Positions 3,577 to 45,043 of a stretch of DNA of 64,000 nt are shown one piece after another (positions within the stretch are counted from its first letter, which is position 1; the number at the start of each line of letters is the position of its first letter). The DNA is taken from the NCBI GenBank assembly GCA_964005815.1, contig CAXFSR010000049.1, positions 366 to 64,365 on the forward strand. The letters run 5' to 3'. The DNA comes from an uncultured Nitrospinaceae bacterium (GTDB taxonomy: Bacteria > UBA8248). Position numbers and translations under genes: made by a program. The notes beneath the pieces were generated by a model, which was not told the DNA's origin, ran no database searches, and saw only the letters and a program-made list of their open reading frames with translations.

Positions 3577-3891
3577 TTAACCAAAGATTTGATTGGGAAC
3601 TCTACCCCAATTTTCAGGATTCGTAACAATACTACCATCCTGTTCTTCGTAATCAAAAAAAAGTGTTTCAGTTTCAGTTTTCGTACCTTTTTTTTCTATT
3701 CTCCTTACACTGATCGTGGGGACATGGATATTAAGTTCAAAATTCTTGGCATGACTTATACTCACAATGGCATTAAATTTTGCAGCACATTTCTCAAGAG
3801 ATTCACGATTGGTCTTAATTGAACCATCGGAAAGGATTTCAGAATCAAAATTTTCTGTTAATTCTACTAAGAAACTATCTGGCTCTAACAT
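3577..3891 (-). CDS. hypothetical protein
   Basis: 104-aa ORF co-directional with neighbours. No recognisable motif. Confidence 0.4.
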   Translation of the reverse strand: MLEPDSFLVELTENFDSEILSDGSIKTNRESLEKCAAKFNAIVSISHAKNFELNIHVPTISVRRIEKKGTKTETETLFFDYEEQDGSIVTNPENWGRVPNQIFG

Positions 3892-3936: not shown

Positions 3937-4704
3937 TTACCAATCCCAGAACATTGTATATGCCCTACCTAAAATCGGGGAGTGCTCATCCCACAATATA
4001 ACAATTCGATTGTTTTCAGCATCAAATTCTGGATATAGACGTCTTTTATTGAAACTGTTAGACGCTCCGTCAGATTCCTCTCTCCTTACACCTATTGGTT
4101 TTCTCTCAAACGGAAGAATCAATGAAAGTTTAAACGAATCTGTAGGATATTCTACAACTAGTGTAACCCACTCATTCCTAGAATTAAATGTATTTGCAAG
4201 AACCATTTCTTCTTGAATTTCAAATGATTCGCCTTCGGTCAAAGGTACAGGCAGAGAAAGACATGCTGAAGAATCTACGCTAGTCATTTTATCTACCTTA
4301 AACTCAACTTCCTCCCAATCTGCTGACTCTCCTGAATCATTGTCTATAGTCCTATACTTATATATTACTGAGCGATCACCTGTACCCGTATGACATCTTG
4401 ATCTGATTTCTGAGAGATCCCTGAGTGCAGAACAATTACGCTTACTTACCATACTTGCCTTTTTACCATTCACATCATGAATAGTATATTCTCTTTGATC
4501 AAGATTAATCTTGTAATCATAAAGTCCTTTTTCCTCATCTTTAGTTGGAGTAACATCTAAGTTTTCTAGAAGTGATAATTTCTCTTCCACACTTTGCAAT
4601 CTATCAATAATAGATTTCTGACGTAAAATGAATTCTTGAAGTTCTTCCCTTAATTTTTCTGTATATTCATTCTTGTCAATCATATTGAAATTACCCCTGC
4701 ACAC
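3937..4704 (-). CDS. hypothetical protein with N-terminal coiled-coil
   Basis: 255-aa ORF. The N-terminal heptad-rich segment (EELQEFILRQKSIIDRLQSVEEKLSLLENL) looks like a coiled coil. No family recognised. Confidence 0.45.
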   Translation of the reverse strand: MCRGNFNMIDKNEYTEKLREELQEFILRQKSIIDRLQSVEEKLSLLENLDVTPTKDEEKGLYDYKINLDQREYTIHDVNGKKASMVSKRNCSALRDLSEIRSRCHTGTGDRSVIYKYRTIDNDSGESADWEEVEFKVDKMTSVDSSACLSLPVPLTEGESFEIQEEMVLANTFNSRNEWVTLVVEYPTDSFKLSLILPFERKPIGVRREESDGASNSFNKRRLYPEFDAENNRIVILWDEHSPILGRAYTMFWDW

Positions 4705-8056: not shown

Positions 8057-9685
8057 TTATTGTTGTGTTTGGTCTTCACTTTCTTTTTTTGCATTTTCTT
8101 TTTGCTCATTTAAACTTTTGGACCAAGCTAAAAGTGTTGAACGTACCATTTCAAGAAAAAAGGAAGATGTCAGTTCATCACTACTTAACTCCGTTGACAA
8201 CATAAAACATTCACGAGAAAAATCTTTCATTCCTAAATGATGGTAAAGATACGCATTCTCTTCTAATTGAGAAGTCAATCTTCTGATGTAATTCTTATTT
8301 TTATAGATTTCACTAGTTGCAGTTTTTATAGTCCGTTCTAAGAGTTCGTTCCTTTTTTGTTCACTAATTTTCTTGTCAGAATTTAATGAATCTATATAAG
8401 TTTGCACGTAAGGCCTAATGATTTGATCATCAATATACCAACCACTAAAAACCTTATCACTCAGAAGAATGCTTGCATCAATTCTTTCTTTATCTTTCGA
8501 AACATTATTCATCAGTTCGGCAACTGGATGAATATTCATATCTGAAAATTCACTTTTCTCAACAAGTGTATTTAGTAACAATTTAGTTCTAGTAAAACCA
8601 CTTGGAAGAGTTATCCCCAATTTTTCATTCTCCAATTGAGCTCTTTCCAATAACCAATTTGCATAAGAAATTGGCACTTCAGCAGTTGCAAGAGAGTCTT
8701 GTTCTTCTATTTTAGAGAGAAAATTTCGTATCTCCTTGGAAGTAGTTTCAACTAAAGACAAATCTTCTATTCCAGATTTAACTTTTAAATTAAATTCTCC
8801 TAAATAACGACCCTTTGGTTTTTTTGAACGTATGATCCATAATATTTTTCTACCAGTACCATCAGTTGAACTACAAATTGCCTTAGAAATATCATTTCCC
8901 TGAAAAAGATTTGGAGGAAGAGATTTATCTTTAGATGTTTTATTTTTGACATTAATTCCTTTTTTTTCTAAACGAAAAATACTCTTTCTCAAGAGTGACT
9001 TAAATTTTTTGTCCAAAGAATTCTCACTCATATTAACGAGAAAAATTGCTGCATCATTACTACTTAAAGAAACTACTAGATTTATTAGGTCTGGTGAAAA
9101 TTGTTGAGTTTTTTCGAAAACATTTTCAAAAATACGAAATAATTTTTCTATAGATTTAGGTTCTCCCTGATTCAATATTTGACGAAAGATGAGAGATTGC
9201 GAATGAATAGATAATTTCCCAATACTTTCTTCAAGATCATTAGTTTTCACTTTGTTTAAATCATTATGATTTAGAAAAAGATCTATATTTTTTGAAACCT
9301 CTTCCAAATTTTGGTCACTTAAAACATCTGGAATAATTGAATCGGAATCAATAGATAAGATGGTTTCTTTTAGCAATTTTAACTGCTCCGGTGTCCACTT
9401 AAATGACATTGCAAGTTCAAGTAAACTCGGGATGAACTCAGTATTGTTTAATGTTTTAATTGCAAGAAGGCTTGGAAGTACACCCTTGTCGCTCGTAAGA
9501 TTCAGATGTTCTTGCATTCCTCTTATCCCAGCGTCCCCTAATTCTAAGATTTCATCAATTAAAGGAGCGGGAGCCATAGCATCATCAGGCATAGGAGATG
9601 TAAAAGATTTTTCCAAAGCAAAAGCTATAGCCCTTGCCCTTTTAAGGTCCTCTCTTATCACTTTATTTTTCTTGTTTTTTTCCAT
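8057..9685 (-). CDS. large hypothetical protein
   Basis: 542-aa uninterrupted ORF, Lys/Glu/Leu-rich and predicted mostly helical. No recognisable catalytic motif. Confidence 0.5.
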   Translation of the reverse strand: MEKNKKNKVIREDLKRARAIAFALEKSFTSPMPDDAMAPAPLIDEILELGDAGIRGMQEHLNLTSDKGVLPSLLAIKTLNNTEFIPSLLELAMSFKWTPEQLKLLKETILSIDSDSIIPDVLSDQNLEEVSKNIDLFLNHNDLNKVKTNDLEESIGKLSIHSQSLIFRQILNQGEPKSIEKLFRIFENVFEKTQQFSPDLINLVVSLSSNDAAIFLVNMSENSLDKKFKSLLRKSIFRLEKKGINVKNKTSKDKSLPPNLFQGNDISKAICSSTDGTGRKILWIIRSKKPKGRYLGEFNLKVKSGIEDLSLVETTSKEIRNFLSKIEEQDSLATAEVPISYANWLLERAQLENEKLGITLPSGFTRTKLLLNTLVEKSEFSDMNIHPVAELMNNVSKDKERIDASILLSDKVFSGWYIDDQIIRPYVQTYIDSLNSDKKISEQKRNELLERTIKTATSEIYKNKNYIRRLTSQLEENAYLYHHLGMKDFSRECFMLSTELSSDELTSSFFLEMVRSTLLAWSKSLNEQKENAKKESEDQTQQ

Positions 9686-10621: not shown

Positions 10622-11427
10622 TCTTCTTTACTTTTAAAAATATTTTCTATTATGTTTTTAAAATCTTTTTTAGAATTTTCCATATTAAAGTGTATAAAAA
10701 ATTCTCTATTCCCTTTAGTTCCAAGAATTGGACTATCAGTAACGTTACATGGAGAAAAACCCAAATCTTTTGATTCTTGCCAGATATTGAACAAAACCTC
10801 TTCATGTAATTTCTGATCACGAACAATTCCACCCTTACCGACTCTATTTTTTCCTACTTCAAACTGTGGTTTCACTAAAGCAACAATTTCATTAGGAAAA
10901 GAAATTAGCTTTTGAATCACTGGAAGAATTTTCATGAGAGAAATGAATGAAACATCAATTACAGCAAATTCAAAATTTAGATCACAATCAGATGAACTCA
11001 ATATCTGTCTATTTAAATATCGGGCATTAACTCCTTCTATTATCGTTACCCTACTATCGTTTCTCAAACTCCAGTCGAGCAAACCTTTCCCCACATCAAC
11101 GCAAACAACATGCGCAGCTTGCCTTTTGAGTAAAACATCCGTAAAACCACCGGTTGACGAACCAACATCCAAACAAGACTTGGAAATAGGATCTATTCTA
11201 AAGTAATCTAAGGCATGAAAAAGTTTTTCTCCACCTCTGCTTACAAATTCTCTTTTACTCTCAGTGATGGAAATGGACGAATTTACATCATAGGAATGGC
11301 CAACTTTATCTGCTACAAAACCGTCAACTTTAATTCTACCAGAAAGAACAAGTCTCTTTGCATGCTCACGACTTTTCACAAAGCCTTTTTCAACGAGAAG
11401 TTTATCAATTCTTTCTTTTTTTTTCAC
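10618..11427 (-). CDS. tlyA: TlyA-family rRNA 2'-O-methyltransferase (hemolysin A-like)
   Basis: S4 RNA-binding N-terminus (RIDKLLVEKGFVKSREHAKRLVLSGRIKVDG) followed by an FtsJ-like MTase with the GxGxG motif DVGSSTGGFTDVLL. Confidence 0.85.
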   Translation of the reverse strand: MKKKERIDKLLVEKGFVKSREHAKRLVLSGRIKVDGFVADKVGHSYDVNSSISITESKREFVSRGGEKLFHALDYFRIDPISKSCLDVGSSTGGFTDVLLKRQAAHVVCVDVGKGLLDWSLRNDSRVTIIEGVNARYLNRQILSSSDCDLNFEFAVIDVSFISLMKILPVIQKLISFPNEIVALVKPQFEVGKNRVGKGGIVRDQKLHEEVLFNIWQESKDLGFSPCNVTDSPILGTKGNREFFIHFNMENSKKDFKNIIENIFKSKED

Positions 11428-13334
11428 GAAATAACGCTACGCATGTGATCATCAATATCTATTAGATCGCGTGCAGCTTGAGTTATATCACCCGATGTTA
11501 GGCCACAATCTTCTCTTTGCAAAGCTGGGCTCCCATGAGATATAAAACGATCGGGAATACCAAGGACAGAAACTGGAATATTACTCATCTTATTTTCTGA
11601 AAGAATTTCTAAAACACCCGAACCCATACCACCAATTTTTGTCCCTTCTTCTATTGTTACGATTCTCTTACACAAATTAGCCTGTTCAAGTATTTTTTTC
11701 TTGTCCATAGGTTTCACAAATCTAAGATTCAGGACTGAAGCTTGAATTCCTATCTCTTCTAATTGTGAGGAAGCCTCGAGTGCAAGTGGAACCATTGGAC
11801 CTAGAGCAATCAATAGCACATCTCTTCCTTCCCTTAACAACTCTGATTCACCAATTGGAATACTTTTAACCTTATCTTGTAATTCAACACCTAAACCAGA
11901 ACCTCTACAGAAACGAAGCGCTGCGGGACCGGGGTATTCTATTGATGTAAGAAGCATACTTTGCAATTCGCTCTCATCCTTTGGAGACATCACGATTGCA
12001 TTTGGCAAACATCTCAAATAGGCTATGTCAAAAGCACCATGATGCGTAGGACCATCTTCTCCGACTAAACCTGCACGATCTATTGCAAAAGTCACAGAAA
12101 CATTCGTAAGACAAATATCATGAACTATCTGATCATAGGCTCTTTGTAAAAAAGTACTATAAATTGCAACAACTGGCTTCATATTCTCTAAAGATAGTCC
12201 AGCCGCAAATGTTACACCATGCTGTTCACACATTCCGACATCAAAACATCTATCAGGAAAAAGACTCTGATATTCTACTAAAGCTGTTCCTTCCAACATA
12301 GCTGCAGTTATTGCCACTATCTTTGGATCCTTCTTACTCAATTTAATCATTGTATCCGCAAAAACTTTAGAATAACTTGGAGGGCCTGGTTTCTTTTTCA
12401 GAAATTTTCCAGTTTCAGGATCAAATTTGGTAACACCATGGTAAGTAATTGGTTCAGCTTCACTATATGGATAACCATGCCCTTTTTTTGTAACTACATG
12501 TACTAAATTAGGACCCTTTAATTTACGAACATTCCGTAAAGCTGGAATTAGCAAATCTAATCTATGACCATCAATTGGACCTATATAACGAAAACCTAAT
12601 TCTTCAAATAGAATGCCAGGAACAAATAAATTCTTCATGGAATCTTCAAATCTCGTCATGAAATTAACAGCAGATTCACCAAAAACAGGAAGATGAGAAA
12701 CAATTTTTTGTATTTCATTTCTAAACTTCCTTGCGCGATTAGCCCATTCTCCAGTCATAATCCTTGCAAGATAAGAACACATAGCACCAACATTTTTTGA
12801 AATACCCATTTTATTATCATTTAAGATTACAGTTAGATCTCTCTTAGAATCTCCAGCATTATTTAACGCTTCCATTGACATACCAGATGTAAGACTTCCA
12901 TCTCCAATAATTGCAACAACACTAAAATTTTCTTTACTTAGATCTCTTGCAGTTGCCATTCCAGACGCCGCAGATATCGAAGTACCTCCATGTGCGACAT
13001 TCATATGATCATATGGACTTTCTAGTCTATCTGGGAAACCAGCAATTCCTCCCCACTGTCTAAGAGTTTCAAATTCCGTTTTTCTTCCGGTCAATACTTT
13101 ATGTGCATAAGCCTGGTGACCAACATCCCAAATAAGTTTATCGATAGGTGTCTGAAAAACATAATGCAAAGCAACTACTAATTCAGTTGCACCTAAAGAT
13201 GCCCCCAAGTGTCCACCGGTTTTAGAAGTAACGCCAACAATAAATTCTCTTAACTCTTCTACTACAGTCTGCAGTTCATCTTCAGATAGTTTTCTGAGAT
13301 CTTCCGGAGAATCTATTTGTGCTAGTTTTTTCAC
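11424..13334 (-). CDS. dxs: 1-deoxy-D-xylulose-5-phosphate synthase
   Basis: 636 aa with the TPP-binding GDG motif (IIGDGSLTSG) and transketolase-like domains. It sits in the conserved ispA-dxs synteny. Confidence 0.92.
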   Translation of the reverse strand: MKKLAQIDSPEDLRKLSEDELQTVVEELREFIVGVTSKTGGHLGASLGATELVVALHYVFQTPIDKLIWDVGHQAYAHKVLTGRKTEFETLRQWGGIAGFPDRLESPYDHMNVAHGGTSISAASGMATARDLSKENFSVVAIIGDGSLTSGMSMEALNNAGDSKRDLTVILNDNKMGISKNVGAMCSYLARIMTGEWANRARKFRNEIQKIVSHLPVFGESAVNFMTRFEDSMKNLFVPGILFEELGFRYIGPIDGHRLDLLIPALRNVRKLKGPNLVHVVTKKGHGYPYSEAEPITYHGVTKFDPETGKFLKKKPGPPSYSKVFADTMIKLSKKDPKIVAITAAMLEGTALVEYQSLFPDRCFDVGMCEQHGVTFAAGLSLENMKPVVAIYSTFLQRAYDQIVHDICLTNVSVTFAIDRAGLVGEDGPTHHGAFDIAYLRCLPNAIVMSPKDESELQSMLLTSIEYPGPAALRFCRGSGLGVELQDKVKSIPIGESELLREGRDVLLIALGPMVPLALEASSQLEEIGIQASVLNLRFVKPMDKKKILEQANLCKRIVTIEEGTKIGGMGSGVLEILSENKMSNIPVSVLGIPDRFISHGSPALQREDCGLTSGDITQAARDLIDIDDHMRSVIS

Positions 13335-13409
13335 GATAAAATAATCCTAAAAAAGATACTTGTACATTTAAAAACTAATATTGCAAATTTCAAAAATCAC
13401 AATTCAGAA

Positions 13410-14336
13410 CTAGAGACTACGGAAAACTATAAATTTTGCAAGAGCCTCTAAAGTTTCAGCATCTTTTCCAAAAACTTTCAAAAAACCTAAAGATTTCTCT
13501 AATGTAGAATTTGCTATTTCCTTTGATTTTTCAATACCATACATTGATAAATAAGTAATTTTTCCAGAAGCAAGATCGGAACCAACTGGCTTTCCTAACA
13601 AATTCTCATCTCCTTCAAAATCAAGTATATCGTCAACAATTTGAAATGCTAATCCAATATACCTACCAAAATTACTCAACGCATTTTGTTCTTCTTCATT
13701 AGCACCACCTAATATTCCTCCTATACAAACAGAAACTCGAATCATTTCAGAAGTCTTGAGCAAATGAATCTGTTCTAAATACTTCGAATCTACTTCAATC
13801 GAATCGGCTTTTATATCTAAATATTGACCACCTACCATTCCTGAAGGACCTGCAGCAGAAGATAAAAGTGAGATAGAATCTATCAATTTGTCTGACCCAA
13901 ATTTTTTCTTCATTGTATTGGAAGATATCAATTCAAACGCTTTTGTTAAAAGACCGTCTCCAGAAAGTATAGCCGAAGCCTCTCCAAAAGCTTTATGACT
14001 AGTAGGCTTTCCTCTCCTCAAATCATCATCATCCATTGCGGGCAAATCATCATGGATCAAAGAATAAGAATGAATACATTCTATTGCGCAAGCAGGTATT
14101 AATACATCATTAGGATCCCCTTTTACAGACTCGCATCCAGCTATACACAAAATCGGTCTGATCCTTTTTCCTCCATTTAACAAGCTATACGACATGACTT
14201 TATATAATTCAAACGGTTCAGATTGTTCATTAGTAAATAAGATTCTTAATTGTTCATTCACTAATTCATTCCATTTTTCCATATAACCTAAGACATCAAA
14301 TGAAGAAGACAAATTACTTTTCCTCACTTTCTTCAT
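13410..14336 (-). CDS. ispA: (2E,6E)-farnesyl/geranylgeranyl diphosphate synthase
   Basis: Polyprenyl synthase family: first DDxxD (LIHDDLPAMDDDDLRRGKP) and second DDxxD (FQIVDDILDF). Confidence 0.85.
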   Translation of the reverse strand: MKKVRKSNLSSSFDVLGYMEKWNELVNEQLRILFTNEQSEPFELYKVMSYSLLNGGKRIRPILCIAGCESVKGDPNDVLIPACAIECIHSYSLIHDDLPAMDDDDLRRGKPTSHKAFGEASAILSGDGLLTKAFELISSNTMKKKFGSDKLIDSISLLSSAAGPSGMVGGQYLDIKADSIEVDSKYLEQIHLLKTSEMIRVSVCIGGILGGANEEEQNALSNFGRYIGLAFQIVDDILDFEGDENLLGKPVGSDLASGKITYLSMYGIEKSKEIANSTLEKSLGFLKVFGKDAETLEALAKFIVFRSL

Positions 14337-14583
14337 CTAAAGGCTTCATAGAAAATGTGCCATCTTCAGTTATAGTTAGTTCTTCAATTTTTTTCTGAGC
14401 AGAATGTAATTGATCCTGCGTAAACTTAAACAATTTGACCCCTTCCTCATATAAAGCAATTGCATCTTCCAAAGTTAAGTCTCCGTCTTCTAAAGTTCCC
14501 ACAATTTCCTCTAGTCTAGAAGATGCATCCTCAAAACTCTTTGGCGAATCAAAAGATGGTTTTTTCTTTTTCGAAGAACTCAT
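14314..14583 (-). CDS. xseB: exodeoxyribonuclease VII small subunit
   Basis: 89-aa helical protein (FEDASSRLEEIVGTLEDGDLTLEDAIALYEEGVKL) in the classic position upstream of ispA. Confidence 0.8.
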   Translation of the reverse strand: MSSSKKKKPSFDSPKSFEDASSRLEEIVGTLEDGDLTLEDAIALYEEGVKLFKFTQDQLHSAQKKIEELTITEDGTFSMKPLDEESEEK

Positions 14584-15974
14584 TGTGTTTCTCCTTTTTG
14601 ATTTGTTTTTTCAACCCTACAATCTAATTCTCCATCCGACAATTTAATTTGAAGCAATTCTTGATTCTCTACTTGTCGAATACTACGAATGAGCGAATTG
14701 TCTTTTGCCCGATAGGTCAAACTATATCCGCGTGCCAAAATTGATATTGGGGAAACAGATTCAAGTCTAAGAATTAAATTTTCCACTTCTAAGTTCTTTA
14801 CAAAGAATATTTTTTCAATACTAATTTTAATTTTCTCAAAATATTCCTCAATTGTTTTTACTTTACTTGAATGAAGACTCAAAGGAGAAACAACTCTAAG
14901 TCTAGGCAAAATCGAAAAAGCACGATTCGTAAAACCTGATAGGACATACTTAGTTTCTTTTGAAAGACTTTCAAAGAGCATATCAACTTTTTGCTGCAGT
15001 TCCTGAATAAACAAAGCGGGTTCTTCTAATATTTTTATTCTCTCATAAAATGCAACTTCATCTTTTCTGTTCTTTAGGAACATTTTAACGTATCGTTCCA
15101 TCTCAGAAGGAAATCTCATAAAACGTTCTAAAAAAACATCCCAGTTGCTACATACTTTCTCAGCGGCTGCCGTAGGTGTTGAAGAAAAATCATCTGATAC
15201 TAAATCAGAAAGCGAACTATCCACTTCATGACCAATGGCCGTTAAAATTGGAATACTGCAGTTGGCAATGGCGCGAATAACTATCTCATCATTAAATGCA
15301 CTGAGATCTTCATTACTACCTCCACCTCTAGAAAGGATTATTAAGTCAGCAGGAGAATTTATTCTATTATTTTCTTCAGCAACCTGAATGGCTCTTTCGA
15401 TAGATCTTGGAGCATATTCTCCTTGCACAAGTGTATGGATGATTGTTAGTTCCACAAAAGGAATACGCATTGACAAAATTGGAAGCATGTCACGTAAGGC
15501 TGCTCCTTCACGACTGGTAACCAAAATAATTCTTCCTGGTCTTATTGGAAGGACTTTTTTCCTTTCCTTGGAAAAAAGTCCTTCCAATTCTAATTTCTCT
15601 CTTAGTTGTCTAAACTTTACATCTAAAATTCCTTCTCCTAATGGTTCCAAAGAGAAAACAGACAATTGGAACCTACCCTCCCGCTCAAAAAGAGTCACGC
15701 TACACTTAACCAAAACTCTCATCCCGACTTCAGGAATAAAATCAAGTGATTTTCTTCTACCTGCAAACATAACAGCATTTATTTTTGAATTAGAATCCTT
15801 TAAAACAAGATATGCATGATTCGATGGATATACCTTCCAACTTGAAATCTCACCTTCAACCAAAATATTGCTGAATTCTTGCTCAAGATGACCACGAACT
15901 TTCGAATTAAGTTGAGAAACCGTATAGATTTGATCTGACATTGTTTTCGTGGAACCCAATAAATCAATGTTCAA
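14580..15974 (-). CDS. xseA: exodeoxyribonuclease VII large subunit
   Basis: 464 aa with an OB-fold N-terminus and the catalytic ExoVII_large core. Overlaps xseB by 4 nt. Confidence 0.88.
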   Translation of the reverse strand: MNIDLLGSTKTMSDQIYTVSQLNSKVRGHLEQEFSNILVEGEISSWKVYPSNHAYLVLKDSNSKINAVMFAGRRKSLDFIPEVGMRVLVKCSVTLFEREGRFQLSVFSLEPLGEGILDVKFRQLREKLELEGLFSKERKKVLPIRPGRIILVTSREGAALRDMLPILSMRIPFVELTIIHTLVQGEYAPRSIERAIQVAEENNRINSPADLIILSRGGGSNEDLSAFNDEIVIRAIANCSIPILTAIGHEVDSSLSDLVSDDFSSTPTAAAEKVCSNWDVFLERFMRFPSEMERYVKMFLKNRKDEVAFYERIKILEEPALFIQELQQKVDMLFESLSKETKYVLSGFTNRAFSILPRLRVVSPLSLHSSKVKTIEEYFEKIKISIEKIFFVKNLEVENLILRLESVSPISILARGYSLTYRAKDNSLIRSIRQVENQELLQIKLSDGELDCRVEKTNQKGETQ

Positions 15975-17016: not shown

Positions 17017-17685
17017 ATGAAAAATTTTATATATGCAATTCAAACCGATTTAGACGCCGCATTTGCAAGAGATCCTGCTGTTAATAGTAAGATAGAAATT
17101 ATTCTCTGTTATCCTGGATTTCACGCAATATTTATTCATCGTATTTCGCACTTCATTTTCAAAAAAGGATTAAAGTTAATTCCGCGATTTTTAAGTCATA
17201 TAGGTAGACTACTTACAGGAATTGAAATTCATCCGGGAGCACAGATAGACATAGGGTTTTTTATAGACCATGGGATGGGAGTTGTAATTGGAGAAACCTC
17301 TGTTATCGGAAAGAACTGCACAATTTATCATGGCGTAACTCTTGGGGGCGTAAGCCTAAAAAAAGAGAAAAGGCACCCTACTCTCGAAGATAATGTTTTA
17401 GTTGGAGTAGGGGCACGTATACTTGGACCACATATAATAGGCAAAAACAGTAGAATAGGGGCAGGGTCAGTAGTTATTTCTGATGTCCCTCCGGATTGCA
17501 CAGTTATAGGAGTTCCTGCACGGATTGTTTCAGGATTAAGAAAGGAACCCAATCAAAAACAACAAGAAACTTCTTTTGAACACGACGAACTTCCAGATCC
17601 TATACAAAATTCTATTCAAAATTTAGAAAAAAGAATACAAGACCTTGAAAAAAGAACGAAAGATGAGGAGGCTCCTGGTTTATGA
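17017..17685 (+). CDS. cysE: serine O-acetyltransferase
   Basis: Left-handed beta-helix hexapeptide repeats and an N-terminal SATase domain (DPAVNSKIEIILCYPGFHAIFIHRISH). Confidence 0.85.
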   Translation: MKNFIYAIQTDLDAAFARDPAVNSKIEIILCYPGFHAIFIHRISHFIFKKGLKLIPRFLSHIGRLLTGIEIHPGAQIDIGFFIDHGMGVVIGETSVIGKNCTIYHGVTLGGVSLKKEKRHPTLEDNVLVGVGARILGPHIIGKNSRIGAGSVVISDVPPDCTVIGVPARIVSGLRKEPNQKQQETSFEHDELPDPIQNSIQNLEKRIQDLEKRTKDEEAPGL

Positions 17686-18839
17686 AAAGAATTTATTTAG
17701 ACCACAACTCTACAACACCTATACGTCCTGAAGTGATCAAAATTGCAGAACCTTTCATTACAAATTTTTACGGAAATCCAAGTAGTGTTCACTCTTTTGG
17801 AAGAGAAACCAGAGAAGCAATAGAAAATTCCCGTATTAAAATAGCATCGACAATAAATGCTTCTGATCCAAATGAGATTTTTTTTACTTCTGGTGGAACT
17901 GAGAGTGACAATCTCGCAATTAGAGGAGTTTTTAATAATCAAGAATCAAAATCACATATTATTACAACTCAAATTGAACATAATGCCGTTTTAGATACTT
18001 GCAATCACCTTAGTAGCGAAAGATCGTTAGAAGTAACCTATATAAAACCGGACAAAGATGGTTTAGTGTCTTCGAAAAGAATCAAAGATGCAGTGAAAAA
18101 AAACACAAAATTAATATCCGTAATTTTGGGAAATAATGAAATAGGTACTATTCAACCAATTTCTGAAATTTCAACATTTTGTAAAAATTTGGGGATATTA
18201 TTTCATACAGACGCGGTACAAGCAGTTGGAAAAATGAAAATAGATGTGCAAAAAGATAACATAGATTTATTATCTGGAAGTGGTCACAAAATTAATGCTC
18301 CAAAAGGTATTGGTTTCCTTTATGCAAGAAAAAACACTCCACTTAATGCAATTCTAACTGGAGGTGGCCAAGAACAAAACATAAGATCGGGTACCGAAAA
18401 TGTAGCTGGAATAGTTGCACTAGGTGAAGCATGCAAAATTTTAGATACAGAAGGAAATGAGCTTTGGGGTAATGTTTTAAAATTGAGAGATAGATTAGAA
18501 AATGAGATTTGTGAAAAGATTCCTGATGTTGAAATCATTGGACACAAGACTCAACGTCTTCCTGGAACATCAAATATCGCGTTCTCAAATGCTGAAGGAG
18601 AAACTTTATTAATCAGACTAGATCTTGAAGGGATAGCTGTAAGTACAGGTGCAGCCTGCAGCTCTGGATCAACTGAACCTAGTCATGTTTTACTTTCAAT
18701 GGATCTGCCACAAAATCTTGTTCGTGGTTCTCTTCGTTTTAGTCTGGGTTGGGGAAGTACTGATGAAGATATAGATTATTTAATGGATAAATTACCTTCT
18801 GCAGTTAAAAAGGTTAGAGAAATTGCGCCAAAGAATTAG
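17682..18839 (+). CDS. nifS: cysteine desulfurase (NifS/IscS class)
   Basis: 385 aa. PLP-lysine motif SGSGHKINAPKG and active Cys in STGAACSSG. Start overlaps the cysE stop. Confidence 0.88.
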   Translation: MKRIYLDHNSTTPIRPEVIKIAEPFITNFYGNPSSVHSFGRETREAIENSRIKIASTINASDPNEIFFTSGGTESDNLAIRGVFNNQESKSHIITTQIEHNAVLDTCNHLSSERSLEVTYIKPDKDGLVSSKRIKDAVKKNTKLISVILGNNEIGTIQPISEISTFCKNLGILFHTDAVQAVGKMKIDVQKDNIDLLSGSGHKINAPKGIGFLYARKNTPLNAILTGGGQEQNIRSGTENVAGIVALGEACKILDTEGNELWGNVLKLRDRLENEICEKIPDVEIIGHKTQRLPGTSNIAFSNAEGETLLIRLDLEGIAVSTGAACSSGSTEPSHVLLSMDLPQNLVRGSLRFSLGWGSTDEDIDYLMDKLPSAVKKVREIAPKN

Positions 18840-18862
18840 TTCTAAATTACTAAAGGTAAAAA

Positions 18863-19243
18863 ATGAATAATAGCAACTATCATTATAATTCTATTGTATT
18901 GTCACATATTGCATCGCCTCAAAATGTTGGTATTTTAGAGGACCCTAACTATTTAGGAAAAGGAACTAATCCCTCTTGTGGCGATGAGGTAGAATTGTAT
19001 ATCAAAACAAATGGAGAAAAGATTATTGACGCTAAAATTAAAATCCTTGGGTGTGGAGCAATTACAGCTTCAATGAGTCTACTAAGTAATTTACTTATAG
19101 GTAAATCAATCCAAGATGCAAAAAAAATATCCTCCGAAGATATTGAAAGAAACTTAGGAGGACTTCCTAAACACAAACAGCATTGTTCTAAATTAGCATG
19201 TAGAGTCCTCCAAAACGCTTTTGATAAATCAGAAAATGAATAA
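18863..19243 (+). CDS. nifU: Fe-S cluster assembly scaffold (NifU/IscU N-terminal type)
   Basis: 126 aa with the three scaffold Cys (GNPSCGDE, GCGAITAS, HCSKLA). Confidence 0.85.
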   Translation: MNNSNYHYNSIVLSHIASPQNVGILEDPNYLGKGTNPSCGDEVELYIKTNGEKIIDAKIKILGCGAITASMSLLSNLLIGKSIQDAKKISSEDIERNLGGLPKHKQHCSKLACRVLQNAFDKSENE

Positions 19244-22694: not shown

Positions 22695-23474
22695 CTATTT
22701 AGATATATGCCACCAGTATATATCAGAGCCATCGGAAACATAGCTAGCAAAAAAAGTAACTACAATTATATGAGCAATAAGACCAAGAAAAAAAATAATC
22801 GATAAAGATATATGAATCGATCTCCAAAAACGAATAAAAAAATTATATTCAAATTTTTTTCTTATACAAGAATTTTCTTGACGGACTAAATTATAAAATT
22901 GAATGGAAAAAATAGGATGGCAAAACCAATGTTTAAGACTAAGAGAAAAAGTACCCTCTTCACTATCAGGGTCAAACGATAACAATAATTTTTCTTTCTT
23001 GGAAATTATCAATTCTATTTTTTCTTTTTCATGGGGTTCCATAGTGTGAAAGACTTCAATTTTTGAAGCAAAAAGTTTTGCATTCCTCTTAGAAATATAA
23101 AACCTTGCAAAAACCCCTAAAAGTGTTAGAGCTAAGAGTGCTAAAAGTAGTAATGCTGGAGCGTACCTTAAATGACCAGAAGAGTGAATTGTAACTAAGA
23201 CAGAACCAATAACTGCTGTTACTACGTGACAATTAAACCAAAATACTGGTTTTTTACTTACGTTTGTTCTCTTAAGCAATAAGAAAAGGATAGAAACAGA
23301 TAAAAATAAAGAACCAATCACACCAAAAACATAAAGTACTGGGGAACCTGGCATATGCCACATAGATGGCAATAAATGCAAAAATGAAAAATATCCAAAC
23401 AAACTAAGGGAAGCAATAGATATAAGGTATGCAAGTATCCTATCTTGTATTGATAAAGACTGCTTTTTTTTCAT
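22695..23474 (-). CDS. integral membrane protein, putative heme-b membrane anchor of the molybdoenzyme
   Basis: 259 aa with about 5 TM helices and conserved-looking His residues inside the helices (FLHLLPSMWHM, CHVVT...TIHSSGHL, LIAHIIVV). It lies immediately upstream of the Mo-enzyme gene, and its 4-nt start overlap with the greA stop supports co-expression. Confidence 0.55.
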   Translation of the reverse strand: MKKKQSLSIQDRILAYLISIASLSLFGYFSFLHLLPSMWHMPGSPVLYVFGVIGSLFLSVSILFLLLKRTNVSKKPVFWFNCHVVTAVIGSVLVTIHSSGHLRYAPALLLLALLALTLLGVFARFYISKRNAKLFASKIEVFHTMEPHEKEKIELIISKKEKLLLSFDPDSEEGTFSLSLKHWFCHPIFSIQFYNLVRQENSCIRKKFEYNFFIRFWRSIHISLSIIFFLGLIAHIIVVTFFASYVSDGSDIYWWHISK

Positions 23475-37451: not shown

Positions 37452-37937
37452 TTAATGACATCCGCCTGTGATCCCACGCTTTAGAAAATAACTCTGATGA
37501 TATTCTTCAGCAGGCCAAAAAGTAGTCGCTCTAGTTATCTCTGTTACAATTGGGTTAGAAAATTTTCCTGAATTATTCCATTTTTCGCGAGAAATTTGCG
37601 CTAATTTCTCTTCATCAACCTCAGCAAAAAAGATAGCTGAGCGATATTGTTCTCCTATGTCAGGTCCTTGCCTATTTAACGTTGTAGGATCATGTAAATT
37701 CCAAAAACAATCTAGTAACTCTTCATAAGTAATTATAGTAGGATCAAATTCAACCCTAACAGCCTCTGCATGACCTGTACTTGAATAACACACTTCTTCG
37801 TATGTCGGATTTTCTTTACTCCCACCAATATATCCTACAGAAGTCTTTAAAACTCCATTTAAACTTTGAAAAGTAGACTCTACTCCCCAAAAACAACCAG
37901 CAGCAAAAATAGCAACAGACAATTTCAAAACCTCCAA
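37452..37937 (-). CDS. msrA: peptide methionine-S-sulfoxide reductase
   Basis: 161 aa. The GCFWGVE active-site motif is present. Confidence 0.88.
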   Translation of the reverse strand: MEVLKLSVAIFAAGCFWGVESTFQSLNGVLKTSVGYIGGSKENPTYEEVCYSSTGHAEAVRVEFDPTIITYEELLDCFWNLHDPTTLNRQGPDIGEQYRSAIFFAEVDEEKLAQISREKWNNSGKFSNPIVTEITRATTFWPAEEYHQSYFLKRGITGGCH

Positions 37938-37957: not shown

Positions 37958-39049
37958 TTAAAGGTTAACCGTTATTTTTCTTTCTTTTCCTTCCACTACT
38001 TCTCCTATTATAGACGAACAAGAAGAACCAGTAGAAATCAATTTTTGTATCATCTCCTCAGACCTTGAAGGTTCTACAGCAATTATCAAACCTCCAGAAG
38101 TTTGAGCATCGTTCAGAACGGCAATCATATTTTGGTCTAATTTATCTGAATAAGAAACAAAAGAACTAGTCCACTCTCTATTTCTTTCTCCACCTCCAGC
38201 TGTACCTTGAATAGCGTGAGATAAAACTCCTTCAAAAAGAGGTATATCTGAAAATGAAATCTCAGCATCTAATCCACTTGCATCAAGTATATTGTGAAGG
38301 TGTCCTAAAAGTCCAAAACCAGTTACGTCGGTACAAGCATTGACTGGAAATTTCAACATAACTTCGCTAGCGGTTTTGTTAAGAGTTTTCATTGAATTAA
38401 TAGATTCCTCAAAAACACCTTCCTTTAATTTGTTATTTTTAGATTTAAGCACTCTTGAAATTTTTTTTATAGGACTAGTACTTTTGTTGAGATTCGTAAT
38501 TATTCCCGTTCCTATTTTCTTTGTCAAAATCAATTTGTCTCCAGGTTTCGCCCCGCTATTTAAAATCATATCTTTAGGCTCTATAACCCCAGTTACAGCA
38601 ATCCCGTACTTTGGTTCTTGATCATCTACACTATGACCACCTAAGATAACAGCCCCTGATTCGCGAACTTTCTCGGCTCCTCCGGAAAGGATCAAGCTTA
38701 ATATATCCATTCCCAAATTACACGGGAAAGACACTAAACTCAGAGCAGTAACCGGTCTAGCTCCTATCGTATAACAGTCACTAAGAGCATTTGCAGCAGC
38801 GATCTGTCCAAAATCAAAGGGGTCATCAACAATTGGAGTGAAAAAATCTACAGTCTGAACAATTGCCAAGTCTTCTCTTAATTTGTATACACCAGTGTCA
38901 TCACAAGGATTTGTCCCATAAATTAAATTTGGATCTACAAATGGTTCAAATCCTGACAGGGCTTTTCTGAGGTCCTCCGGACCAATTTTTGAACCTCAAC
39001 CACCCGCTTTAACCATACTCGTCAAAAAAACTTTTTTTTCATTCTTCAT
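37958..39049 (-). CDS. selD: selenide, water dikinase (selenophosphate synthetase) with in-frame UGA selenocysteine
   Basis: The ORF track's TTG start at 38869 is internal. The same frame stays open upstream through a TGA (38996-38998 on the minus strand) to an ATG at 39047-39049. This gives MKNEKKVFLTSMVKAGG-U-GSKIGPEDLRKAL...FVDPNL..., which aligns residue-for-residue with E. coli SelD (HGAGC17GCKISPKVLETIL...FVDPNL). The UGA sits exactly at the Cys17 position. Confidence 0.85.
38941..38995 (-). promoter_or_regulatory. candidate SECIS stem-loop immediately 3' of the selD UGA
   Basis: mRNA after the UGA reads GGUUCAAAAAUUGGUCCGGAGGACCUCAGAAAAGCCCUGUCAGGAUUUGAACC. It has an apical GGUCC-GGA-GGACC hairpin starting 13 nt after the UGA. 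The outer arms GGUUCAAA and UUUGAACC are also complementary. Confidence 0.5.
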
Positions 39050-39232
39050 TAAATTAATCCCAAAAAAACATATACAAAAATATATTTTTATTATCGTAGA
39101 AAGGAAGCGATTAGAAAACCACAAAAATTAAATACCATTCTATTTGCAAAAAAAAATCAAAAGAAATGTTTTTTTTTATTTAATCTTAGTAAAATCTATT
39201 TTGGAATTTTTCATATAAACAAGGCAAAAAAA

Positions 39233-44483: not shown

Positions 44484-44924
44484 TTAATCAGTAAGATTAA
44501 CTACATTTCCATTGATTTTTAAACTACTTTCAATTTCTACAGGGTTTTTTAAAGTCCACTCCGCGAAACAACCACCTTTTGCATTTTTAGCAAGTTTTAT
44601 TACCTCTTCTGGAGAAGCATCAGAATCAATAGAAAGAAAAGAACGAAAACTATTGCAACCGCTTTCAACTGTCCCTTTTAAAACAGAACCTCTCAAGAAA
44701 AAATCATATTCAATCCTGCATTTTGCTTTCTTAAATGGTATTTTCATCATGTGCGCGTACCGCGCAACTTGGGTCAAAAGTCAAAAACCCACACCAAGTG
44801 CAAAATAATTTAACGGTTGTGGATACTCTCCGTCACCTCCTAATCTCGCTGGTTCATCACAATAAATTTCAAAATCTCCACTCTTCCCAACTTTTAGTTG
44901 TCCTTTTCCTTCTATGGTTTCCAT
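44484..44924 (-). CDS. OsmC/Ohr-family peroxiredoxin-like protein with in-frame UGA (candidate selenoprotein)
   Basis: ORF-track entries 44781-45101 and 44484-44777 are in the same frame, separated only by a TGA at 44781-44783. Read through, they give ...GDGEYPQPLNYFALGVGF-U-LLTQVARYA...AKNAKGGCFAEWTL. This resembles OsmC (NPEELIGAAHAAC59FSMAL ... KAGC125PVSQVL), with the UGA at the peroxidatic-Cys position. The start is uncertain: Met at 44924 is preferred, because the longer ORF to 45101 overlaps the SNase gene. Confidence 0.6.
44748..44768 (-). promoter_or_regulatory. candidate SECIS hairpin 3' of the OsmC-like UGA
   Basis: mRNA reads UGA-CUUUUGACCCAAG-UUGCGCGGUACGCGCAC. There is a GC-only stem GCGC(G)/CGCGC with a GGUAC/GUA loop about 14 nt after the UGA. 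This is a conspicuous GC block in an AT-rich gene. Confidence 0.4.
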
Positions 44925-45043
44925 CTCTGCCACTATTGTATTTACGTATCCTTGAGCGGGATGCTCTGGTTGATCGATTACCCTCTTTCCTGGGACATTA
45001 CTTTGATCTGCTGCAGTTGTCGGCTTCAAAACGTGAACTCCTT

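Follow-up and report, generated by a model that had tools for sequence, protein, structure and literature searches.

The 64,000-nucleotide stretch of contig CAXFSR010000049.1 from an uncultured Nitrospinaceae bacterium that was analyzed here, called the window below, carries on its minus strand a gene for selenide, water dikinase (selenophosphate synthetase, SelD) with one in-frame TGA. The gene is very probably an intact selD in which selenocysteine (Sec) replaces Cys17 of the E. coli enzyme in the catalytic N-terminal loop. It is accompanied by msrA on the downstream side, and a second gene with an in-frame TGA, encoding an OsmC-like protein, is present elsewhere in the window. Coordinates of these and other features are collected in Table 1.

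The minus-strand frame 39049..37958 of the window was taken as selD, and the UGA position was written as Cys for profile and structure searches. The open reading frame (ORF) listing opens selD at an internal TTG (38869) and gives a product of 303 residues (37958..38869, minus strand), since any TGA ends a frame in ORF calling. Upstream of this TTG, translation of the frame encounters a single in-frame stop, the TGA at 38996-38998, and then an ATG at 39049-39047; across the TGA the extension translates as MKNEKKVFLTSMVKAGG*GSKIGPEDLRKAL.... The frame comprises 364 codons counting the terminal TAA and thus specifies 363 residues (17 amino acids, Sec18 and 345 amino acids). A first-pass annotation of the window had described the TTG start in the ORF track, the crossing of exactly one TGA on the way to the ATG at 39049 and the translation around the UGA, all of which were recovered from the ORF list and by re-translation; the protein length of 364 residues that it gave has to be reduced by one, since the terminal TAA had been included in the count.

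The ATG at 39047..39049 is most likely the start codon of selD, as judged from alignments. When translation begins there, 17 residues precede Sec, compared with 16 before Cys17 in E. coli SelD, and the near-identical relative L084 matches window SelD from residue 1 (MKNEKKVF). A TTG at 39124 was rejected as an alternative start, as the 25 further residues gained from it have no counterpart in any profile.

The identity of the gene product was examined with TIGR00476 and NF002098, which are two NCBIfam SelD equivalog models with curated cutoffs. The protein obtained by reading through the UGA scored 344.4 bits with TIGR00476 (cutoff 125), with an alignment starting at residue 9, and 302 bits with NF002098 (cutoff 299) over residues 4-362, with residue 4 falling on profile position 3. 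Pfam placed the AIRS domain (PF00586) at residues 50-156 and AIRS_C (PF02769) at residues 168-361. In a search of solved structures the best match was E. coli SelD (3u0o, E = 2e-61, residues 4-355). The loop KAGG-U18-GS-K21 was aligned with HGAG-C17-GC-K20 of this structure, which places the UGA (U18) on Cys17, Ser20 on Cys19 and Lys21 on Lys20. The UGA also aligns with the Sec-to-Cys position of Aquifex SelD 2yye; the Aquifex aeolicus enzyme (2yye/2zod) was, as we take it, solved as a Sec-to-Cys variant. Homology thus extends across the UGA. Furthermore, D51, D68, N87 and D91 are identical in the 3u0o alignment and the TDVTGFG motif is kept, and identity holds for the whole acidic site for adenosine triphosphate (ATP) and metal (E. 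coli Asp51, Asp68, Asp91 and Asp227, with Asn87). Alignment A1 shows no variation at D68, N87, D91 and D241. We take E. coli Asp51, Asp68, Asp91, Asp227 and Asn87 to bind ATP and metal, and the residues at the Cys17 and Lys20 positions of the N-terminal glycine-rich loop presumably have the role assigned to them in SelD biochemistry. The proposal of the first-pass annotation that the extension is collinear with E. coli SelD, with the UGA at the nucleophilic Cys, is borne out by these alignments, and homology is not confined to the part downstream of TTG 38869, as profiles and relatives start at residue 3-9.

For comparison with relatives, 80 genomic and 80 metagenomic loci were fetched and the codon at the Sec site was read in each. 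This codon was TGA in 135 of the 153 resolved related loci and TGC or TGT in the other 18; a Cys codon (TGC or TGT) also occupies the Sec site in L164-L167. All 12 members of the clade (63-97% protein identity) keep the TGA, and the flanking codons on both sides vary synonymously. The locus L168, on a 2.9-Mb contig, likewise has TGA at this site, so that the 13 closest relatives examined all have TGA. Conservation among the relatives extends to the residues before the UGA (LT..VKAGG). Between the selD genes of the window and L084 we counted 14 amino-acid differences and 58 synonymous codon differences, which indicates that selD is under purifying selection as a gene in use and is not a pseudogene.

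The mRNA can form the hairpin GGUCC-GGA-GGACC, which starts 12 nucleotides (nt) downstream of the UGA and leaves 17 nt between the UGA and the loop. Codons +5 to +8 (GGT CCG GAG GAC) showed no synonymous variation in the 12 relatives, and between codons -9 and +25 only these codons and the TGA are free of it in the clade. These codons are rare in the window, which has 36% GC: Pro is encoded by CCG in 9% of cases, Glu by GAG in 24% and Asp by GAC in 19%. Under a null model of synonymous recoding with the codon usage of the window, the exact 13-mer arose in about 0.1% of cases and a local minimum free energy (MFE) as low as the observed value in 1.4%. Four TGC-type SelDs that encode GSKIGPEDL use GGC CCG GAA/GAG GAU UUR and have no comparable hairpin; their energies range from 0 to -5.8 kcal/mol, and a C-A mismatch occurs in the hairpin register. 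Among unique genes encoding GPxDL, and with the reservation that they are not phylogenetically independent, GGU at codon +5 was found in 50 of 53 Sec-type and 8 of 16 Cys-type genes, GAC at codon +8 in 50 of 53 and 7 of 16, and the mean local MFE was -6.8 and -3.2 kcal/mol, respectively. The hairpin is under a constraint at the RNA level that is specific to TGA-type genes.

In a published model of the bacterial selenocysteine insertion sequence (SECIS), the apical loop has 3-9 nt with G in its first two positions, the upper stem has 4-16 base pairs (bp), the loop lies 16-37 nt from the UGA and the MFE is -7.5 kcal/mol or lower (PMC13188914, a 2026 review). The geometry of this model is satisfied by the hairpin of the window, of which the loop GGA is 3 nt long and begins with GG, the stem has 5 bp and the spacing is 17 nt. 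The 'canonical SECIS' of a SelD example in the BSepDB paper is this same hairpin, identically placed (GGGUCCGGCGGACCUC). The hairpin is thereby supported as the putative core of the SECIS. The first-pass annotation had proposed a nested SECIS in which this hairpin is enclosed by the outer arms GGUUCAAA and UUUGAACC. The inner part of that proposal stands, as the hairpin has invariant synonymous sites, is missing from Cys-type genes with the same peptide and fits the consensus; the outer part was given up, as the two synonymous positions of the arms pair about as often as by chance.

The observations in this paragraph, and those on a close relative and on the host given further below, weigh against the reading of the gene as a Sec-type selD with this hairpin as SECIS core. 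Single-sequence folds were indistinguishable from those of shuffled sequences (z = -0.38 and -1.45), and a 9-bp hairpin with the UGA inside it competes at -10.4 kcal/mol in the window sequence. The energy of the inner hairpin is -5.8 kcal/mol in isolation and -7.0 kcal/mol in context, slightly weaker than the published limit of -7.5 kcal/mol; to attain this limit the unsupported outer arms have to be included (-13.4 kcal/mol). Covariation in the hairpin is unobservable because its stem overlaps conserved codons: four of the five pairs use codon positions fixed by the G-P-x-D-L peptide, and these pairs cannot covary. The shared phylogeny behind the Sec-versus-Cys counts also belongs here. Finally, Rfam at gathering thresholds returned no family match in the whole window, and a permissive search (E up to 10) of 38700-39200 gave only chance-level matches to unrelated eukaryotic families. 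The missing Rfam match is no argument against a bacterial SECIS, since bacterial SECIS elements are described as very diverse (PMC13188914).

It is conceivable, if rather unlikely, that the functional SECIS is not the inner hairpin but either a two-tier structure with GGUUCAAA/UUUGAACC or the 9-bp hairpin UUGAGGUUC/GGACCUCAG that includes the UGA. The nested fold of inner hairpin and outer arms is indeed the MFE structure of the 71-nt segment 38930-39000, at -15.9 kcal/mol, as the first-pass annotation would lead one to expect, but this energy does not go beyond that of shuffled sequences (z = -0.38). It is likewise the MFE structure of the 62-nt segment that holds the inner hairpin and the outer arms, with -13.4 kcal/mol and pair probabilities of 0.67-1.0. 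In a 161-nt context the UGA-containing hairpin is preferred over the nested fold (z = -1.45) and is the MFE structure, at -10.4 kcal/mol. Single-sequence folding was abandoned as evidence because the z-scores are uninformative and the winner depends on the context; comparative evidence was used instead.

Among the relatives the outer arms are fully paired in L001, L088, L083 and L085, and L001 and L088 maintain the outer stem by two paired synonymous changes. These apparent compensatory changes are offset by seven other relatives (L081, L084, L086, L087, L089, L002 and L003), in which the arms are mismatched and one or two pairs are lost without compensation, such as by a G-to-A change in the 3' arm of L081 and a U-to-C change in the 5' arm of L084. 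The outer arms were rejected as a conserved element on these grounds. Their two variable positions are synonymous sites that track GC content and that pair in some relatives only, about as often as by chance, and the conserved G-S-K and F-E-P codons account for the positions that are fixed. With the UGA in the A site, the ribosome should cover the 5' outer-arm stretch, and the lower helix of the bacterial SECIS is described as unwound once the UGA reaches that site (PMC13188914). The alternative UGA hairpin was rejected too: it is not conserved in GC-rich relatives, where it cannot form (GGACCUGCG), and it excludes the invariant inner hairpin. What diverse Sec-type SelDs have in common is only a hairpin at about +13 to +30. 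The inner hairpin GGUCC-GGA-GGACC thus remains our candidate for the SECIS core.

Two side observations concern the same RNA region. Sec-type SelDs that encode G-P-G-D-L-D (L005, L031, L034, L036, L038, L043, L044 and others) have a longer hairpin, GUCCAGG-GGA-CCUGGAC, which lies one codon farther downstream and has a GGA loop as in the window hairpin; this suggests two register classes of SelD SECIS. A terminator scan reported a plus-strand 'terminator' at 38971-38983, consisting of GGTCCTCCGGACC followed by AATTTTTGAA. It is almost certainly a scan artefact, as it corresponds to the reverse complement of the SECIS hairpin plus the complement of the AAAAAUU spacer, inside the selD coding sequence (CDS).

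A second gene in the window is predicted to encode a selenoprotein. It is separate from selD, about 6 kb away, and is relevant here only to Sec decoding by the host. A scan for window ORFs that continue through one TGA gave ten candidates; short selenoproteins (<~120 residues) and C-terminal Sec codons were not systematically covered by it. Eight of the ten candidates were discarded as shadow ORFs or AT-rich upstream noise. The OsmC-like gene opens with a TTG at 45029, which is preceded by AAAGGAG, and has its stop at 44484. Pfam OsmC (PF02566) matched with 42.3 bits (cutoff 27.5) in an alignment that spans the UGA, and the UGA falls on the Cys of the OsmC-like structures 3cje and 2opl, in the motif U-L-L-T. 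A hairpin with loop GUA and an energy of -7.8 kcal/mol is found 20 nt after the UGA and fits the bacterial SECIS model. In L081 the TGA of this gene is kept and a synonymous C-to-U change turns one G-C pair of the hairpin into G-U, which preserves the pairing. ORF callers split the gene into pieces of 82 and 97-98 residues, and it is annotated in this way in L081. An OsmC-like selenoprotein family (pfam02566) with the motif UxxT has been described from marine metagenomes (PMC2398784), and the window gene has in common with it the Pfam OsmC domain, the UxxT motif (U-L-L-T) and U at the Cys position. The first-pass annotation had anticipated further selenoproteins, an expectation that this gene with its in-frame TGA at a Cys position bears out within the window itself.

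Since two independent genes within 64 kb have TGA at a Cys position together with a SECIS-like hairpin, the host very likely decodes UGA as Sec. The machinery for this is assumed rather than seen, which belongs to the points that weigh against the reading. No selA, selB, selU or tRNA-Sec was found in the 64-kb window, and neither was a tRNA gene of any kind; for selA, selB and selU, Pfam scans of the window and the Pfam annotation of the syntenic locus L081 were both negative. None of the four was found in the fetched flanks of close relatives either. Two ORFs of 464 and 636 residues at 11424-15974 that could be selA and selB by size were identified as XseA (from sequence motifs) and Dxs. In five distant Sec-type loci (L013, L016, L028, L035 and L053) tRNA-SeC adjoins selD.

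A further adverse point comes from a relative of 95-97% identity (L081, L082), in which a TAA nonsense codon occurs at selD residue 265. The TAA is located at 10613-10615 of L081, where window selD has TCA (Ser265), and the same selD product of 204 residues is called in L081 and L082. A frameshift was dismissed as the cause of the split call, as the alignment is ungapped and the change is a TCA-to-TAA substitution. Despite the TAA at codon 265, L081 still has the Sec codons (TGA) and hairpins of both selD and the OsmC-like gene. The TAA could reflect recent loss of selD or a variant within the population, or selD could have a second copy elsewhere. The nonsense codon in L081 and L082 implies that selD can be lost in this lineage.

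The absence of Sec machinery from the window and the later nonsense mutation in a close relative would both fit a pseudogene or an N-terminally truncated SelD, for which the TGA is a real stop and the product starts at TTG 38869 or another downstream codon. The ORF track and many public gene calls, which begin downstream of the TGA, would fit as well. The closest protein database entries have 297-342 residues and begin just past the UGA position (MSGFEPF..., MGPEDLR...), and in the public entries P0001 and P0003-P0016 and in L168 (333 residues) the SelD of this clade is called in a shortened form that starts past the UGA; P0004, an NCBI entry named SelD, begins with MGPEDLR. Starts just past the UGA are also how gene callers would truncate Sec-type genes. 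We consider a pseudogene or truncated SelD very improbable. The 17 codons before the TGA are conserved as protein, with synonymous changes, in relatives at 63-97% identity, all of which keep the TGA, and the constraint on the hairpin RNA is peculiar to genes of the TGA type. Moreover, a product starting at 38869 would be devoid of the Sec/Cys-Lys loop and of Asp51, both of which are present in the SelD profiles and structures. That the UGA is read in another way, by a variant code (Trp or Gly), a suppressor tRNA or near-cognate insertion of Cys or Trp, is scarcely credible and has no observation in its favor: TGA terminates 8 of the 51 long window ORFs, several of them at tight gene junctions, which makes it a normal stop of a standard genetic code and led us to reject a variant code, and both internal TGAs fall exactly on catalytic Cys positions of families with known Sec forms, and the hairpin after each of them agrees with the bacterial SECIS model.

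By what is established for Sec insertion in bacteria, synthesis of an intact Sec-type SelD would proceed as follows. When the ribosome arrives at the UGA, SelB with Sec-tRNA(Sec) would bind the hairpin, which starts 12 nt farther on and would still be outside the ribosome. SelB would then deliver Sec, and translation would go on rather than end. In the finished enzyme Sec18 and Lys21, in the flexible N-terminal loop, would handle selenium in the ATP-dependent synthesis of selenophosphate. Selenophosphate, the predicted product, would be the selenium donor for Sec-tRNA synthesis. The synthesis of SelD would consequently depend on its own product, since its own Sec residue requires the donor that SelD makes.

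In breadth of occurrence, the families of bacterial selenoproteins are headed by FdhA and SelD (PMC1794560), with Sec-containing SelD in second place, and SelD is among the most widespread selenoproteins of marine metagenomes, with 357 Sec-type sequences (PMC2398784). Window SelD is of the same family as the Sec-containing SelDs of Aquifex aeolicus and Acetomicrobium mobile and has the same domains, with the UGA at an identical residue of the N-terminal glycine-rich loop. The hairpin of Acetomicrobium mobile SelD (BSepDB) is found at the same distance, with UGAGCAGCCAAAUUGGGUCCGGCGGACCUC compared with UGAGGUUCAAAAAUUGGUCCGGAGGACCUC in the window, and has a GGC loop instead of GGA. The window protein has the motif G-U-G-S-K, whereas many other Sec-type SelDs have U-A-S/A/C-K, and its host, unlike those of the Aquifex and Acetomicrobium enzymes, is probably of a low-GC marine Nitrospinota-like lineage. 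E. coli SelD (3u0o) has Lys20, Asp51, Asp68, Asn87, Asp91 and TDVTGFG in common with the window protein but carries Cys17 and Cys19 (GCGCK) where the latter has Sec18 and Ser20 (GUGSK); the window protein also has about 14 inserted residues in the region 190-210. Like the E. coli fdhF-type SECIS and the bSECISearch consensus, the window hairpin is a stem-loop inside the CDS just 3' of the UGA, with a small G-initial loop at a distance within 16-37 nt. As a putative SECIS, it differs from the fdhF type in being much shorter (5 bp, 3-nt loop), with no bulged U identified, and the energy of this minimal hairpin is just short of the bSECISearch limit of -7.5 kcal/mol.

Table 1. Positions in the window of selD, the OsmC-like gene, their RNA elements and other features.
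Feature	Position	Strand	Remarks
selD, full-length CDS	37958..39049	minus	One internal TGA; SelD profiles, Pfam, 3u0o alignment
selD start codon ATG (most likely)	39047..39049	minus	Residue count before Sec, NF002098 alignment, relative L084
Sec codon UGA, residue 18	38996..38998	minus	Aligned with E. coli SelD Cys17; kept in relatives
selD stop codon TAA	37958-37960	minus	Translation
Putative SECIS core hairpin GGUCC-GGA-GGACC	38971..38983	minus	5-bp stem, 3-nt loop; overlaps G-P-E-D-L codons
5' outer arm GGUUCAAA, codons G-S-K	38988..38995	minus	Pairs with 38943-38950 in single-sequence fold
3' outer arm UUUGAACC, codons F-E-P	38943..38950	minus	Partner of possible lower stem
msrA, Cys-type GCFWG	37452..37937	minus	20 nt downstream of selD
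Predicted OsmC-like selenoprotein gene, 181 residues, Sec83	44484..45029	minus	Pfam OsmC across UGA
OsmC-like Sec codon TGA	44781-44783	minus	Aligned with Cys of 3cje, 2opl
OsmC-like hairpin UGCGCG-GUA-CGCGCA	44752-44766	minus	Fold
4Fe-4S dicluster and molybdopterin oxidoreductase fusion with Molydop_binding, 990 residues	19720-22692	minus	Pfam
Cluster of serine-acetyltransferase-like gene, class-V aminotransferase (NifS/IscS-like cysteine desulfurase) and NifU_N scaffold	17017-19243	plus	Pfam

The nearest genomic relatives of window SelD are from metagenome-assembled genomes (MAGs) labelled Nitrospinota or unclassified "bacterium", one of them named ODZ_NOB7a, and near-identical contigs are known from marine metagenomes, including a TARA scaffold. 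The named matches of Dxs at 73-76% identity all come from Nitrospinae, Nitrospinota or Nitrospinaceae, compared with about 55% identity for other phyla. The order 2-Hacid_dh (on the opposite strand), selD, msrA is conserved up to a relative of 65% identity on the 2.9-Mb contig, which indicates that the selD locus is vertically inherited. A PMSR gene is present downstream of selD in L081, L083 and L168, and msrA and selD are probably co-transcribed. The msrA of the window is of the Cys form, though some organisms have MsrA as a selenoprotein.

The remaining genes of the window are ordinary metabolic genes according to Pfam scans. The molybdopterin oxidoreductase of 990 residues has N-terminal 4Fe-4S dicluster domains and no in-frame TGA, and it is therefore not a Sec-type formate-dehydrogenase-like enzyme. 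The literature considers that NifS/IscS-like enzymes may donate selenium to SelD; the NifS/IscS-like cluster of the window lies 20 kb from selD, and nothing in the window ties the two together. No Pfam match (E <= 1e-5) was obtained for four minus-strand ORFs, at 8057-9685 (542 residues), 3937-4704 (255 residues), 22695-23474 (259 residues) and 3577-3891 (104 residues).

Sec-containing SelD, the position of its SECIS and its frequent mis-annotation are already well documented; the selD gene described here is typical of this class and opens no new question. The value for annotation lies in recording a selenoprotein of 363 residues at 39049..37958, with a translation exception at 38996-38998, instead of a fragment of 303 residues. 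The OsmC-like gene (44484-45029) should likewise be joined across its TGA.

MAGs of GTDB phylum UBA8248 that NCBI labels as Nitrospinota are reported to have 48-54 selenoproteins (BSepDB paper). With two Sec genes in 64 kb, one may ask if the lineage is selenoprotein-rich and its natural populations polymorphic for the use of selenium, an idea that we regard as doubtful. If it were true, the TAA allele of L081 would capture the Sec trait while it is being lost or shortly after its loss, or would indicate reliance on a second selD copy. The locus also illustrates how a SECIS inside a coding region fixes synonymous codons, as four rare ones are invariant from about 36% GC to GC-rich relatives. 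For the organism itself, the predicted Sec-type selD would mark the host as a selenium user.

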